NCBI GenBank assembly: GCA_029564765.1
Contig: JAKQPK010000013.1
Coordinates: 28,216-92,215 of the forward strand
Direction: 5' to 3'
Source: Candidatus Omnitrophota bacterium
GTDB taxonomy: Bacteria > Omnitrophota > Gorgyraeia > Zapsychrales > Aceulaceae
Length of the DNA: 64,000 bases
Shown here: positions 60,188-64,000 of the stretch, one piece after another
How the letters are laid out: every line of letters begins with the position of its first letter
Numbering within the stretch: the stretch's first letter is position 1
Notes under the pieces: model-generated
What the model was told of the DNA's origin: nothing
What the model saw: the letters and a program-made list of their open reading frames with translations, nothing else
Databases searched by the model: none
Program-made: the position numbers and the translations under genes

Positions 60188-60283
60188 GGTAGCGCTTTCC
60201 CCAAAACCCCTTTAGCCCCTTTAATAAATATTAATATATTTTATACTTACTTTGTCGGGATAAAAAAAGGGGGAGGGTAAAAA

Positions 60284-63200
60284 GTGCTTTTAAAAGCCAC
60301 GGAAAAGCATTGTTGCTCATTTAAGGCAGTTATTGTATGTCTTTTAGTTTCATTTTCATTAATGAGCGTTGTGCCTGCCCAAGCATTAGCTCAGGGTGTT
60401 TTTAGCCTCCCCACTCCCGGCACGGTAGTCTCTTTAAGCCCAGGTTTTGTGCCTGTCATGCTTCGCGGCCTTCAGGTCAACTTAGCGAATCCTTTTCAGT
60501 TTGACTTTATCGTCGATTCTGGCAATACCGGCCTTGAGGGCGATGCATTAAAAGCAGAAAGCGAGAAGTTAGCTCGTTATTTTCTGGCCACACTGACCAC
60601 CCCGGAAGAAGACCTATGGGTCAATCTGTCTCCTTATGAGAACAATCGCGTTATCCCTGAGGAGCTTGGACAGACCCAGATGGGCCAGGAACTTCTTGCC
60701 CAAGATTATATTTTAAAGCAGATTACCGCCTCTTTGATCTTGCCAGACAGCAAGACCGGTAAGATTTTTTGGGATAAAGTTTACAAAAAGGCTTATGAGG
60801 AGTATGGAGCGACCAGTATTCCAACCGATACGTTTAATAAGGTATGGATCGTTCCAGAGCGTGCTGTTGTTTATGAGGATGTGGACAGGGCAGTCATTAC
60901 CGAGAGCCATCTGAAGGTCATGTTGGAAGAGGACTACCTTGCTGCGCAAGAAAGTCAAAAGTCAAAAGTCAAAAGTCAAAATGAAACCCAACCACTAAAT
61001 ACTAACGACCAAATACTAACAGCCAGCCCTCTTTCTTCGCAAATCGCCCGTGAAGTCCTGATTCCTCTTTTAGAAAAAGAAGTGAACGAAGGAAGAAATT
61101 TTGCTCAATTGCGCCAGATGTTCCACGCTATGGTTTTGGCAACTTGGTATAAGCAGGCATTAAAAGAGTCGATTATTAATAAGGTGTATGCGGATAAGAA
61201 GAAGGTAGAAGGATTAGAATTAGTCGATAGTCGTGAGCATATAGTATCTAGTAACGACCAACCACTAAATACTAACGACCATATACCAAATACTGTTCAA
61301 TCTATTTATGATCAATACCTTGCCGCGTATAAAAAAGGCGTTTGCGATCTTGTCAGGGTTGAGCAAGATCCGCATACTCACAAGCCTGTTGCGCGTAAGT
61401 ATTTTTCTGGAGGATTTGGAAGGCCTGGAGGGAAGCCTATTTCTTCAGCGATCACAAGAAAACCTTGGGCCGCTTTAACGAATAGCTTGGCAAGATTCAT
61501 TGCTGGAACAGCTTTTGCGGTGGCTATGGTGCTGGGAAGCCCTGATGCCGGCGCGGCAAGCAACTCCACAAGGCCATCGATGGAACAGGCGGAGGAGAAA
61601 GTAAAAACAGAAATTGAGAATAAAGAGCAAGATGAATTTGGTCAGGCCGTGGAAATGTTAAGAGATCGGGTCAAAGAATTTAGAGATCCTTCCTCTTGGA
61701 ATCAGGATTTTTTCAGCAAAGAAAATTTACTGGGAACAGTTATTGCAGGGCTTTTGATTGTTGCGGCAGCAGGCTTAGGCGGCAGCATATCTTTTCGCTC
61801 TGTTAGGAAAAGAGCGTTAAAAAGAATTACCCAAGACATTAAGGATGGGAATGTGAACCCGAAGATGTTCTTAAAAGACAATGCTTTGTTTTTGTCATCG
61901 GGAAGAGTGCAGATTGCTATCGACCGCGAGCAGATTCGCTTTGGGGATCTTTTCAAATTGAATATTAAGAACGACGATAGAAGATATTTTGTTTCTCTTC
62001 TCTGGCTTTTACCATTTTTTGTTAATAAAAACAATCCGGATTCGCCCCAGATGAAAGACTTTATTTGGAGTTGTTTTGGCCACTCCATGACATTGCCTCA
62101 AAAATTTTATCGACGGGATATAGAGCACCCTTTTTTTCAGCAGGAACCGTTGCTTGATAGAAACATAGTTCTTGATTTTTTTGTTGAGAAAATGATCGAG
62201 TACCCGGAACTGAGGACTGCGCTTCAGGAAAGATTCGCGGATATACGCCCCAATTTTTATTACCATACCGCTGGGAATCTTTTAGATACGTCAGATCGTG
62301 TTGTGGAGTTAGCCGCAATAGTCGCTCGGGAGATCAGAGAGGGTAAAAAGGATTACGAGCCAGACCTTTTATTTTTAGATTATCTATCTAAATTCTTTTA
62401 CCATAATGATCGCTCTCCTTTGATCCTTGGAACATTTTTTAAGGAGCTGTTCCCTCAAGACCAAGATGTAGTTGCAAAGCTTTTAAATAAATTAAGAGCT
62501 GAATATAAGTATAGTGATTTCCTTGGAGAAATCCCTGCAATTGGAATATTCGCTATAAAGAACAAAGAGATCATTGATAATAACGCATCATTGATAAAGG
62601 CGATTTTATCGCAAGAAAGCAATGTGCGAGGCATCTTGGGCTCTCATATTGCCTCCCACCATAATTTTACACAAAAAGAATTTAATAGTTTCTTGGAGGT
62701 CTTTCTTTTAAATCCTGAAGCGAATGATATTATTGCTGATGTTCTTTTTGGGTGGTATAAAAGACGCTCAGAAAGTTTTATCCTGCCGAAAAATCTTCAG
62801 GACGCAATGCAAGAGTTAAAATCCGGAGTGGCGCAGACAGAGCACCTCCTGGAATCGCCCCGATATCTTTTAGCAAACTATTTTCTTTTAGGCGATTTAA
62901 TAGCGGAAAATAAAAAAGAAGGCATGATCAGCGAGAGGGTCAATTTCTCCCAATTAAAAGAATTCATAAAAGATTTTTTTAAAGCGCAAAGTGATAATAT
63001 TTCTAGTTTTAATCGAATAGGAGAAAACGATCTTTTGAATTTAAGGGCGGTTGCTTATGAGGCTTTTTTGATGTGGGAGCAAATTATTAACGTACAGCAA
63101 AAGGCACAAGAATTAGATTTAGAAGTTGTGGTTGTCGCAAATCTTTCTTACGGGGGTGTTGCTTTAGCGCCCATCACAGATCAGAAAGGGAGCGAATATT

Positions 63201-64000
63201 TTATCAGGGGAACAAATATTCCTGTTTGGCGCACCAAGGTTGGCTCAACAGAGGCTCATAACAATGAATACGTTCTGCCTGAAGATCTTTTTTCACCTGA
63301 TCAATTAAGATTTTTAGTTGAGAAAAAACCTATGGTCATTGTCGTTGATGGTTCTACATCTGTTGCGGACAAGAATAGGACATCAGCGCACATCCCTGAT
63401 GGATTTAAAGGATACAGAAACTTTTTTATTGCATTCAACCTTGCTCTTGAGCGTCAGGTTAATCCTATAGAATTTTTTCAAAACAAAATTTTTGTTGACG
63501 GCTTACAGGCAACTCCGAATGTCATAAATATAGCAAGTAAGATTCGTGATATGGACCTTGAGCTTGATCAGGCGGCTCCGTATGTTTTGAGGTTTTGGTA
63601 TAAAAGAAGAGGGTCTCTATATCTTCGTCAGCACAAAACACGAGATTCCATTGCCCGTAAAGTTGATATAAAGAAGCTTGAATCCCCAGCTTGCATTATT
63701 TTTCAGTCTGCTGTCCATCCTAAAGATGTTCCCGCGGTAATAAAGAATGATTTTATTGGTGGTAAACATACGCCAGCCAGGTTCGATGATACTGATGCTT
63801 TTAAGAGATTCTTACTCTCGTTTCAAGAGGGTTATGGGGTTGTTCCTTCTGAAATATATGCTGATTATTCTCGAAGAGCTCTTGAAGATTTGATAGGTTT
63901 GCTGGGGGATCCGACACAAGAATCCTTATCTAAACAAGCCGGAAAAATTTTTTCTGAAGAATCAATTGAATCTAAGCCCTCAGGGGCGTCGCCTTTGACC
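60284..64000 (+). CDS. Very large secreted or membrane-associated protein of unknown function; 5' partial, at least 1239 codons and runs off the window. NOT in the supplied ORF track
   Basis: RBS AAGGGGGAGGG plus GTG at 60284. Sec signal peptide MLLKATEKHCCSFKAVIVCLLVSFSLMSVVPAQALA-QG. I checked 1239 consecutive sense codons by hand to position 64000 with no stop. Internal TM-like segment GTVIAGLLIVAAAGLGGSISF. Confidence 0.8.
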   Translation, partial: MLLKATEKHCCSFKAVIVCLLVSFSLMSVVPAQALAQGVFSLPTPGTVVSLSPGFVPVMLRGLQVNLANPFQFDFIVDSGNTGLEGDALKAESEKLARYFLATLTTPEEDLWVNLSPYENNRVIPEELGQTQMGQELLAQDYILKQITASLILPDSKTGKIFWDKVYKKAYEEYGATSIPTDTFNKVWIVPERAVVYEDVDRAVITESHLKVMLEEDYLAAQESQKSKVKSQNETQPLNTNDQILTASPLSSQIAREVLIPLLEKEVNEGRNFAQLRQMFHAMVLATWYKQALKESIINKVYADKKKVEGLELVDSREHIVSSNDQPLNTNDHIPNTVQSIYDQYLAAYKKGVCDLVRVEQDPHTHKPVARKYFSGGFGRPGGKPISSAITRKPWAALTNSLARFIAGTAFAVAMVLGSPDAGAASNSTRPSMEQAEEKVKTEIENKEQDEFGQAVEMLRDRVKEFRDPSSWNQDFFSKENLLGTVIAGLLIVAAAGLGGSISFRSVRKRALKRITQDIKDGNVNPKMFLKDNALFLSSGRVQIAIDREQIRFGDLFKLNIKNDDRRYFVSLLWLLPFFVNKNNPDSPQMKDFIWSCFGHSMTLPQKFYRRDIEHPFFQQEPLLDRNIVLDFFVEKMIEYPELRTALQERFADIRPNFYYHTAGNLLDTSDRVVELAAIVAREIREGKKDYEPDLLFLDYLSKFFYHNDRSPLILGTFFKELFPQDQDVVAKLLNKLRAEYKYSDFLGEIPAIGIFAIKNKEIIDNNASLIKAILSQESNVRGILGSHIASHHNFTQKEFNSFLEVFLLNPEANDIIADVLFGWYKRRSESFILPKNLQDAMQELKSGVAQTEHLLESPRYLLANYFLLGDLIAENKKEGMISERVNFSQLKEFIKDFFKAQSDNISSFNRIGENDLLNLRAVAYEAFLMWEQIINVQQKAQELDLEVVVVANLSYGGVALAPITDQKGSEYFIRGTNIPVWRTKVGSTEAHNNEYVLPEDLFSPDQLRFLVEKKPMVIVVDGSTSVADKNRTSAHIPDGFKGYRNFFIAFNLALERQVNPIEFFQNKIFVDGLQATPNVINIASKIRDMDLELDQAAPYVLRFWYKRRGSLYLRQHKTRDSIARKVDIKKLESPACIIFQSAVHPKDVPAVIKNDFIGGKHTPARFDDTDAFKRFLLSFQEGYGVVPSEIYADYSRRALEDLIGLLGDPTQESLSKQAGKIFSEESIESKPSGASPLT
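60954..60981 (+). repeat. Heptanucleotide tandem repeat (GTCAAAA)x4 inside the giant ORF
   Basis: Four perfect copies in frame, coding QESQKSKVKSQN. The unit length is not divisible by 3. Confidence 0.7.

Follow-up and report, generated by a model that had tools for sequence, protein, structure and literature searches.

A hidden reading frame from Candidatus Omnitrophota encodes a member of a lineage-specific protein family with paired terminal modules and exchangeable cargo

An open reading frame (ORF) running off the end of a 64-kb window (the whole stretch of DNA analysed) is a genuine gene of Candidatus Omnitrophota bacterium, and its product, P0001, is a member of an Omnitrophota-specific modular family that is apparently undescribed so far and that we termed the 'bookend' family. 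Sequence comparisons favor, with a probability of about 0.55, a reading in which these proteins are exported and their conserved N-terminal and C-terminal modules (N-module and C-module) form a shared frame that would place exchangeable cargo outside the cytoplasm. Omnitrophota are widespread, ultra-small and apparently predatory or host-dependent, and the literature of 2023-2026 treats their long multi-enzyme proteins as an unsolved puzzle.

Results

The reading frame is a complete gene that extends beyond the window

Re-translation of the + strand in frame +1 from 60284 to 64000 gave 1,239 sense codons and 0 stops, as a first-pass annotation of this DNA had claimed. The ribosome-binding site it had placed before the GTG is present (Table 1), and the frame was indeed missing from the list of ORFs because ORFs running off the source were not listed. 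The extension of the contig that it had proposed was provided by contig L001, which is identical to the window over a 5.7-kb overlap; the gene occupies 10001-15280 in L001, where P0001 reaches 1,759 codons and is closed by TGA. To call it 'giant' was an overstatement, since the family ranges from 638 to 2,340 aa and P0001 is mid-sized. An in-frame TAA at 60278-60280 makes the GTG the earliest possible start. The GenBank entry, a hypothetical protein from a Candidatus Omnitrophota MAG, has 1,733 aa, 26 fewer than P0001, consistent with a start at Met27, which would truncate the signal peptide. Both the ortholog P0121 and the paralog P0006 conserve the residues that precede Met27, and the comparison suggests that the GenBank start codon was placed 26 codons too far downstream.

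The gene is flanked by rsmI on one side and by pyrimidine-biosynthesis genes on the other. The 96-nt gap upstream showed neither a sigma-70-like promoter nor a terminator, and no paralog was found elsewhere in the window. The sequence is AT-richer than its surroundings only mildly (GC 0.422 compared to 0.457 for the window), an effect accounted for by the R1 and M1 segments described below (GC 0.385; GC3 of M1 0.31), and the enrichment in K, E, N and F reported earlier is weak (6.5%, 7.3%, 5.6% and 5.7%, respectively). Because of the housekeeping neighbors and the near-host composition of the N- and C-modules, the whole gene is not a horizontally acquired island; what survives of that proposal is the possible local acquisition of a cassette, M1.

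Table 1. Features of the P0001 gene in the window (positions in nt; aa numbering from the GTG)
Feature	Position	Strand	Description
Shine-Dalgarno-like AAGGGGGAGGG	60267..60277	+	GGAGG core 7 nt 5' of GTG; read from sequence
GTG start codon	60284..60286	+	first start after in-frame TAA
Signal peptide	60284..60391	+	aa 1-36; K-rich n-region, h-region, site ALA↓QG
N-module	60392..61414	+	aa 37-377; family-defining domain
32-nt cassette, copy 1	60988..61019	+	in-frame, encodes QPLNTNDQIL; variable loop 1 of N-module
32-nt cassette, copy 2	61258..61289	+	in-frame, 94% identical to copy 1; variable loop 2 of N-module
Weak hydrophobic segment	61484..61540	+	aa 401-419, SLARFIAGTAFAVAMVLGS, KD19 1.55
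Strong transmembrane-like helix	61727..61795	+	aa 482-504, KD19 2.15
Basic cluster RSVRKRALKR	61796-61825	+	directly after helix aa 482-504
Cargo region R1	61796..62923	+	aa 505-880; AT-rich (GC 0.386), nearly orphan
Cargo domain M1	62924..63958	+	aa ~881-1225; modelled core aa 918-1208, nt 63035-63907
Cargo domain M2, first four codons	63989..64000	+	aa ~1236-1660, remainder beyond window

A signal peptide and a conserved N-module define the family

The Sec signal peptide with an AxA site that had been read in P0001 is conserved across the family: of 109 members scored by a heuristic test, 103 had an h-region and 93 an AxA-like site, and Gln at position +1 of the mature protein is at least 90% conserved. 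It is followed by an alpha/beta domain of ~340 aa, the N-module, recognizable by the motifs LPxPG, NPxxFDFIxD, LWVNLSPYE, QDYxLKQ, TFNKVWIxP, EKEVNxGxNFAxLRQ and KYFSGG. All of these motifs are present in P0001, whose residues 37-377 share 45-70% identity with 119 relatives. The N-module had no match in Pfam or NCBIfam, its profile matched none of the PDB sequences, and a model of moderate confidence (pLDDT 72.6) matched no PDB fold; provisionally, the modelled domain would thus be one without a known fold. Its two variable loops contain the duplication noticed in the first reading, a 23-nt core present as exact copies at 60989-61011 and 61259-61281 (0 expected by chance) within longer in-frame cassettes.

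The C-module is paired with the N-module

The C-module comprises ~70 aa with the consensus GGIDLN…GFVPVIINIxPI (variant GGID[LF]N ... GFxPVIINIxP). In P0001 it lies beyond the window, at aa ~1680-1753 as read on L001, with GGIDLN at aa 1688 and GFVPVIINI at aa 1725. Among the best 120 family matches, 95 carry it 1-59 aa from the C-terminus. A profile search with the C-module matched mostly short fragment ORFs on tiny contigs, and pairing was judged by a survey of loci instead. In this survey, complete ORFs with an N-module ended with a C-module in 54 of 60 cases, two of the six exceptions being split genes, and each of the nine 'orphan' C-module ORFs was either cut by the edge of the locus or one of those split genes. 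The identities of the two modules are correlated between proteins (rho 0.39, permutation maximum 0.20). Combined, these results show that N- and C-modules nearly always co-occur and co-diverge. P0001 displays the three marks of a 'bookend' protein, namely a signal peptide with AxA↓Q, an N-module and a C-module near the C-terminus.

No Pfam match was found for the C-module, and 32 C-modules searched against NCBIfam at E<=10 gave only two unrelated single matches; N- and C-modules scanned member by member at the same threshold yielded only scattered chance matches. The C-terminal tail is acidic and variable. A PDZ-type tag LS[KR]L at the C-terminus was considered and rejected as a general feature: it is enriched (27 of 149 members compared to ~5 expected) but the extreme C-terminus varies.

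At least 3,895 cluster representatives match P0001 at E<=1e-3, and they do so only over aa ~1-380 and ~1680-1750. N-modules were found at no fewer than 596 loci in species-representative genomes, nearly all of them Omnitrophota MAGs with several loci per genome, and on only 3 of 2.9 million viral contigs. N-module-like heads are present on proteins of 3.8-7.4 kaa, the longest relative with a divergent N-module measuring 7,391 aa. Literature searches retrieved no description of either module.

The middle of the protein is exchangeable cargo

Between the two modules lie 260-1,900 aa of unrelated domains. The 149 cargos analyzed fall into 93 unrelated groups, and fewer than 3% of protein pairs share a cargo when their N-modules are 50-70% identical. 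This shows that the middle is exchanged while the frame is kept. Relatives carry, at this position, full-length PGI (E=1e-191), beta-eliminating lyase, PGM, enolase or GNAT domains; methyltransferase, HAD, ROK, kinase-like, ankyrin/HEAT/WD40 and DnaJ domains also occur. Sec export of full-length glycolytic-type enzymes is unusual and counts against the favored reading.

The P0001 protein had been described as devoid of known domains, and searches of Pfam, NCBIfam, PADLOC (0 families of anti-phage models at E<=1) and PDB sequences agreed. A word-index search with its middle region, limited in the number of candidates, matched P0001 alone and probably missed true relatives; an exhaustive HMMER search then found them. 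The first ~220 residues of R1 match P0121 (33% identity over aa 488-722), and aa 487-598 match P0263 (31% identity); the rest of R1 is overlapped at its C-terminal end by only a few long proteins. The profiles of M1 and M2 matched none of the PDB sequences, and M2 is a second orphan domain. M1 has the motifs NLSYG, KVGSTExH, VVVDGS and HxPxxFDD and invariant polar residues. Its modelled core adopts a PRTase-like alpha/beta fold whose best structural matches are type-I phosphoribosyltransferases (HGPRT, UPRT, PyrR), a class to which M1 does not belong by the combination of Pfam Pribosyltran and the PRPP-loop motif. This motif consists of two adjacent acidic residues followed by a turn of the T/S-G-x-T type (PROSITE PS00103); the position of the PRPP loop is occupied in the M1 model by VVVDGS as a strand-loop element. 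In P0001, M1 probably serves as an enzyme domain that binds a nucleotide or a phospho-sugar. The closest relative, P0121, has the N-module, R1, M2 and C-module in common with P0001 and a different segment in place of the AT-rich M1, which fits local acquisition of M1 as a cassette.

Cysteine depletion and topology of the cargo

Cysteine is depleted about 10-fold in the cargo, with a median of 0.12% compared to 1.2% in soluble neighbor proteins (p=3e-38); mature P0001 contains 0.17%. This proxy was checked in the same genomes, where neighbors bearing a signal peptide have 0.08% Cys and the others 1.21%. The conserved signal peptide and this depletion, which is typical of exported proteins in these genomes, both speak for export, and we infer that the cargo works outside the cytoplasm. 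Cysteine depletion as such could stem from a cause other than compartment.

Both hydrophobic stretches of the first reading were found, a strong helix at aa 482-504 and a weaker patch at aa 401-419 (Table 1); a segment like the latter follows the N-module in about 1/4 to 1/3 of members. The helix raises an alternative that we consider rather unlikely, in which P0001 is a type-I inner-membrane protein with a periplasmic N-module, the helix as stop-transfer anchor, and R1, M1, M2 and the C-module in the cytoplasm. This would make P0001 a membrane-tethered enzyme or receptor, with the hydrophobic stretch of the C-module perhaps reaching into the membrane from the cytoplasmic side. Six K/R residues lie within 15 residues after the helix, so that by the positive-inside rule the 1,250-aa cargo would be cytoplasmic if this helix were the only membrane span; the weaker segment could, however, form a hairpin with it. 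The PRTase-like fold of M1, of a nucleotide/PRPP type that usually serves cytoplasmic substrates, and the cytoplasmic enzyme families from which relatives draw their cargo also suit a cytoplasmic location, and many long Omnitrophota proteins are read as inner-membrane-anchored in a 2026 preprint (bioRxiv 10.64898/2026.06.07.730766). Against it, the 1,255 aa after the helix contain 2 Cys, as in the exported class of these genomes and unlike the cytoplasmic one. Furthermore, 95 of the 149 cargos have no TM-like segment and yet share the same signal peptide and C-module, so that the C-module would face the cytoplasm in some paralogs and the outside in others, and the N-module keeps at least 45% identity among paralogs, unlike sensor domains, which tend to diversify.

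Comparison with known systems

Several known systems resemble the family in part. Cargo proteins of the type IX secretion system (T9SS) of Bacteroidota likewise combine a Sec signal peptide, a small conserved C-terminal domain (~70-100 aa in T9SS), diverse cargo and many paralogs per genome. In contrast to them, 'bookend' proteins have an obligatory 340-aa N-module, and their C-module matches nothing in NCBIfam or Pfam at E<=10, the curated models of the T9SS CTD being TIGR04183 and TIGR04131. T9SS is not known in Omnitrophota. The family and T9SS cargo also share Gln at the mature N-terminus, described for the latter as the Q-rule (PMC10653852). In flagellins with a variable or enzymatic center, the termini are also inherited together around a hypervariable middle; these proteins use the flagellar T3SS and a coiled coil, whereas P0001 has a Sec signal peptide, an alpha/beta N-module and no flagellin Pfam domain. 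Autotransporters and trimeric autotransporters were rejected as candidates, given the absence of any beta-barrel or YadA-anchor Pfam match and an aromatic last residue (F/Y/W) in only 4 of 149 members.

MARTX toxins come close in organization, as conserved N- and C-terminal regions flank an exchangeable mosaic of enzymes and close relatives differ by cassettes. By analogy, P0001 might be a released effector or toxin in which, after Sec export, the two modules would serve as a translocation device taking the cargo into a prey or host cell; we judge this improbable. The recombining mosaic of enzyme domains between conserved termini would suit it, as would the resemblance of the cargo to effector arsenals (methyltransferase, GNAT, HAD, kinase-like, ankyrin/HEAT/WD40, DnaJ), the predatory or host-dependent epibiotic life of cultivated and inferred Omnitrophota, and a Cys-poor cargo fit for unfolded passage. 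However, MARTX toxins are T1SS substrates with glycine-rich repeats, a cysteine protease domain and no Sec signal peptide, and P0001 has a Sec-type signal peptide and lacks RTX and CPD Pfam domains, tandem repeats, an autoprocessing protease domain and any fold for pore formation or receptor binding. The TM-like segments in P0001 and in about 1/3 of the family argue for retention, and many cargos (PGI, PGM, enolase) are ordinary enzymes of metabolism, not obviously harmful. The secretion partners hoped for in the vicinity did not materialize either: around 80 family loci, no recurrent secretion or processing candidate and no outer-membrane secretion partner was found, which counts against the favored reading as well; what recurred was an antisense shadow ORF, signalling proteins and, at 11 loci, a multi-TM/TPR protein.

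The first-pass suggestion of an accessory surface protein retains its export and its lineage-specificity and loses its adhesin, pore-forming toxin and S-layer forms, for which there were no Pfam or NCBIfam domains, repeats or structural match. A structural role at the surface, as an adhesin or S-layer component with the long middle as stalk or spacer, is very improbable: signal peptide, length, lineage-specificity and low Cys would agree with it, but repeats and Ig-like, beta-helix, SLH or adhesin Pfam domains are absent, the middle consists of compact globular domains, one with a PRTase core and invariant polar residues, and bona fide enzymes occupy the same position in relatives.

Within the phylum, long proteins have been described as 'giant genes' (West-Roberts et al. 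2023, bioRxiv 10.1101/2023.11.21.568195) and in a catalogue of 916 proteins (bioRxiv 10.64898/2026.06.07.730766). Most of those proteins have signal peptides and/or TM helices and share with the 'bookend' family a 'cytoplasmic-type' Pfam mix (methyltransferase, GNAT, HAD, PGM, ROK, HEAT). The searchable text of these papers contains no description of a shared N- or C-terminal module. P0001, with 1,759 aa, is much shorter than the proteins of at least 10 kaa on which they focus, and in Pfam searches it lacks the dockerin/cohesin-like, C39/S8 peptidase and SecA-related domains of the giants in the 2023 paper.

Discussion

In the reading that we favor, the P0001 precursor would be exported by Sec and cleaved after Ala36, and the N- and C-modules would build a shared targeting, docking or assembly frame. 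This frame would be recognized by machinery, or by a structure of the envelope, that all paralogs share, and would hold enzyme-like cargo in the periplasm, on the cell surface or where the cell meets its host or prey, the specific activity of each paralog coming from its cargo. A bolder version, which we put forward tentatively and consider less likely than not, is that the two modules are each one half of a bipartite signal for sorting or assembly, used by an unrecognized Omnitrophota-specific display or delivery system. Its dedicated machinery would read the frame and, in each cell, put dozens of different Cys-purged 'cytoplasmic' enzymes, glycolytic ones among them, on the surface or pass them into an attached host or prey, and a divergent form of the same frame would head the multi-thousand-residue proteins of the phylum.

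In conclusion, an unexplained hidden ORF has become a classified gene with a defined architecture and a swapped AT-rich cargo cassette. Two HMMs, one per module, offer a simple sequence handle for collecting thousands of 'bookend' proteins. The paired frame and the tenfold cysteine depletion are evidence that enzyme-like cargo may act outside the cytoplasm, and the question is now concrete: which factor recognizes the frame, and what is the final location of the cargo? If the bipartite signal were real, Omnitrophota would in effect have moved metabolism or prey manipulation outside the cell.

An open frame at the window end encodes a 1,759-residue protein

The first-pass annotation had described a long open frame with a strong ribosome-binding site and no known domain at the end of the window, and had called for an extension of the contig. 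The frame 60284-64000 (+) translates to 1,239 sense codons without a stop, and was missing from the ORF list solely because this list leaves out ORFs running off the source. The ribosome-binding site AAGGGGGAGGG is located at 60267-60277, with its GGAGG core 7 nt upstream of the GTG at 60284, and an in-frame TAA at 60278-60280 makes this GTG the earliest start possible. The extension was provided by L001, a public contig identical to the window across the 5.7-kb overlap, which takes the gene on to a TGA stop and encodes the full-length protein P0001 (1,759 aa; 1,239 of 1,239 window residues identical). No part of P0001 has a Pfam, NCBIfam, PADLOC or PDB sequence match, as the annotation had anticipated. 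The gene lies in housekeeping surroundings, with rsmI on one side and pyrimidine-biosynthesis genes on the other, and no second family copy was found in the 64-kb window.

The cluster of P0001 includes GenBank entry HOD12026.1 ('hypothetical protein PKO44_02885 [Candidatus Omnitrophota bacterium]', 1,733 aa), whose 26 missing residues fit a start at an internal ATG (codon 27, Met27). Such a start would delete the n- and h-regions, that is most of the signal peptide (codons 1-27, window 60284-60364). Because the residues upstream of Met27 are kept in the ortholog-like protein P0121 and in P0006, a paralog from the same MAG, and because of the ribosome-binding site, GTG 60284 is the better supported start.

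Two terminal modules are inherited as an obligate pair

Relatives of P0001 were sought among 5.8 billion protein clusters; of 8,000 candidates that were scored, 3,895 passed E<=1e-3. Their named source organisms are almost always Candidatus Omnitrophota, and they align to P0001 only at residues ~1-380 (45-70% identity) and over the last ~70 residues. These regions correspond to a signal peptide followed by a module of ~340 aa (N-module) and to a C-terminal module (C-module); we refer to everything between as cargo, and to proteins with both modules as the 'bookend' family. Neither module is present in Pfam (2025) or NCBIfam (2026). The N-module has many invariant positions (LPxPG, WVNLSPYE, QDYxLKQ, TFNKVWIxP, EKEVNxGxNFAxLRQ, KYFSGG), and the C-module, with the consensus GGID(L/F)N..NLxL...G..IxF.LP......(I)DGFxPVIINIxPIxNLxxLLG, is followed by a short, variable and mostly acidic tail.

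A C-module is found in 95 of the 120 best matches, always 1-59 residues from the C-terminus; several of the remaining 25 are partial per source label or lie on short contigs, and so may be truncated. An N-module profile search of genomes gave at least 596 loci. Among the 80 loci surveyed, 54 of the 60 N-module ORFs terminating inside the locus end in a C-module. Of the other six, two are split genes, with a C-module ORF taking over at the stop of the N-module ORF. Nine C-module ORFs are devoid of an N-module, and every one of them is either truncated at the edge of its locus or part of these two split genes. Furthermore, the pairwise identities of the two modules are correlated (Spearman 0.39; maximum across 500 permutations, 0.20), which indicates joint inheritance. 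Combined, these results show that the N- and C-modules are inherited together and form an obligate pair. In the split genes (L032:5895-8870 and L057:2112-5688) the C-module ORF lies in a different frame or beyond a stop; possible explanations are a frameshifted pseudogene, a sequencing error or a programmed event. A 'frame-shifting heptanucleotide tract' had been flagged separately in the window gene.

Genomes carry several paralogs, with at least six in one MAG, three of them sharing one contig, and at least eight different locus tags with the PHY73_ prefix occur among the top matches. Viral contigs are almost devoid of the family (3 matches in 2.9 million). Family genes are frequently found in clusters: the N-module loci L003, L005 and L052 lie within ~40 kb of contig CAZYOA010000005.1, and at several loci one member terminates immediately upstream of another. 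Partner machinery was not found beside family genes.

The cargo is exchanged fast

The cargos of 149 members form 93 unrelated groups; half of the cargos have nothing in common with the rest. Cargo is common to fewer than 3% of pairs at 50-70% N-module identity and to only 22% of pairs above 70%, showing that it is exchanged fast. Besides the enzymes listed in the table, precomputed Pfam matches revealed methyltransferases, HAD, UDPGP, NDK, DnaJ and ankyrin/HEAT/WD40 cargo, and some members are named ROK-family or malonyl-transferase proteins by their source. In P0118 (1,415 aa) the enolase Pfam domains are in reversed order, with the N-terminal domain (1054-1261) behind the C-terminal TIM barrel (742-1026), an arrangement that implies a circular permutation or a rearranged cassette.

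Cargo parts of P0001 and enzymatic cargo of relatives (KD19, hydropathy score of hydrophobic segments)
Protein	Feature	Position	Remarks
P0001	weak hydrophobic segment	aa 401-419	KD19 1.55
P0001	strong hydrophobic segment	aa 482-504	KD19 2.15; RSVRKRALKR directly after
P0001	R1	aa 505-880	nearly orphan
P0001	M1	aa ~881-1225	
P0001	M2	aa ~1236-1660	
P0086	full-length phosphoglucose isomerase + beta-eliminating lyase	between modules	isomerase E=1e-191
P0100	phosphoglucomutase domains I-III	between modules	
P0118	enolase	between modules	
P0043	GNAT	between modules	

The closest relative of P0001, P0121 (2,172 aa), is identical at 65% in the N-module, 33% in the TM/R1 region and 74.5% in M2 plus C-module, and has a different segment of ~740 aa in the place of M1. 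The 33% identity covers the first ~220 residues of R1 (aa 488-722); the C-terminal end of R1 is overlapped by only a few long proteins. That M1 is an independent domain emerged when 1.84 billion representatives were searched exhaustively with HMMER: its clusters at 50% identity number more than 130, and of its 147 relatives, 134 are devoid of the N- and C-modules. The relatives include P0148, P0158, P0166, P0170 and P0194, and some of them stand alone, with a length of 260-350 aa. No Pfam match occurs among the M1 relatives, a widespread and unannotated domain family for which Pfam has no model. Invariant polar residues lie within NLSYG, GSTExH, VVDG, PDxxxGY and YFDD; in P0001 numbering, invariant residues include Asn953, Ser988, Asp1022 and Asp1168/Asp1169. 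The predicted fold, which is very confident, shows a phosphoribosyltransferase-like core. M2 also has stand-alone relatives (~300 aa) and gave no PDB sequence or Pfam match.

The region had been described as AT-rich and possibly horizontally acquired. AT-richness is real in M1 and R1 (GC 0.385; GC3 0.31 in M1) but confined to them (N-module 0.435, M2 0.439, C-module 0.495, whole window 0.457); it is thus a local feature that fits a swapped cassette and gives no sign of a horizontally acquired gene. Two more ORFs of the window have no Pfam match, 36238-37722 (+; 495 aa, GC 0.383, the window minimum) and 33351-35006 (+; 552 aa).

Short cassettes recur in loops

The internal 23-nt duplication noticed at first pass is present: the exact core CAACCACTAAATACTAACGACCA, encoding QPLNTNDQ, occurs twice, each time within a copy of a 32-nt in-frame cassette (60988-61019 and 61258-61289), in two different variable N-module loops. 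The exact 23-mer was also found in four metagenome contigs (L082:614-636, L083:2453-2475, L084:2011-2033, L085:5439-5461). Three of these copies occupy the same N-module loop in other members of the family, and the one in L082 lies in a C-module loop just upstream of GFVPVIIN. Other loop peptides, e.g. 'ETLSVNRETPNASQDTLHSSRNKLAS', recur in further paralogs. The cassette looks like a short element spreading between permissive loops of the family.

Evidence for export of the cargo

The family signal peptide consists of a basic n-region, an h-region (103 of 109 members) and an AxA|Q site (AxA-like in 93 of 109); it predicts that the N-module, at least, is exported by Sec. In the family alignment, conservation of the Gln following the predicted cleavage site (Ala36|Gln37, window 60389-60394) reaches at least 90%. 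This resembles the 'Q-rule' of exported Bacteroidota proteins, whose Gln is cyclised to pyroglutamate (PMC10653852). A hydropathy census detected no TM-like segment in 95 of 149 cargos, including those with phosphoglucose isomerase and phosphoglucomutase; the cargo of such members would cross the membrane behind the N-module.

Cys content provides an independent line of evidence on cargo location. Median Cys is 0.12% in family cargos and 0% in N-modules, compared to 1.2% in soluble proteins of neighbouring genes on the same contigs (p=3e-38 versus cargos) and ~1.5% in housekeeping ORFs of the window. P0001 has three Cys in 1,723 mature residues and two in the 1,255 of the post-TM cargo. Low Cys holds as a proxy for export in these genomes, as non-family neighbours have a median of 0.08% with a signal peptide and 1.21% with neither signal peptide nor TM (p=1e-4). 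Copies of M1 contain 0-0.3% Cys inside long Omnitrophota proteins versus 0.66% in Cys-normal parents.

In P0001 one feature speaks against an exported cargo: directly after helix 482-504 lies a basic cluster, which by the positive-inside rule would keep the cargo in the cytoplasm if the segments at 401-419 and 482-504 do not pair as a hairpin. A type-I membrane protein with its cargo in the cytoplasm is considered an unlikely alternative. Somewhat less probable still is a released effector carrier; MARTX toxins likewise have conserved ends around mosaic effectors, and the family failed the test for membership among them. We consider a structural adhesin or S-layer protein very improbable; the analogy with SLH-type anchoring modules is functional, and here too membership was not supported.

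A proposed export frame and its novelty

We propose that the N/C frame acts as a shared device for export, docking or assembly. It would be recognised by something common to all paralogs and would place enzyme-like cargo outside the cytoplasm. A recognition factor shared by all paralogs would account for an N-module remaining at least 45% identical while the cargo changes. Cultivated and inferred members of the Omnitrophota are epibiotic predators or host-dependent.

T9SS cargo is analogous in combining a signal peptide, Gln at +1 and a C-terminal sorting domain, and flagellins with enzymatic hypervariable regions are analogous in function; the family tested as a member of neither. Long multi-enzyme Omnitrophota proteins bearing a signal peptide or TM are already published (West-Roberts et al. 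2023; bioRxiv 10.64898/2026.06.07.730766). The recent catalogue (bioRxiv 10.64898/2026.06.07.730766) lists the same repertoire as the 'bookend' cargo and, in its searchable text, makes no mention of shared terminal modules. Paired N/C modules, their obligate linkage and the Cys signature were not found in the searchable text of the literature. Proteins P0122 (7,391 aa), P0125, P0128 and P0140/P0405 (3.8-4.6 kaa) start with a divergent N-module and end in a different module of ~110 aa that likewise begins with GGIDF(R)xLP, suggesting a wider superfamily that would tie the 'bookend' family to very long Omnitrophota proteins. The gene alone is ordinary for its phylum; its interest lies in the family architecture that it exposes.
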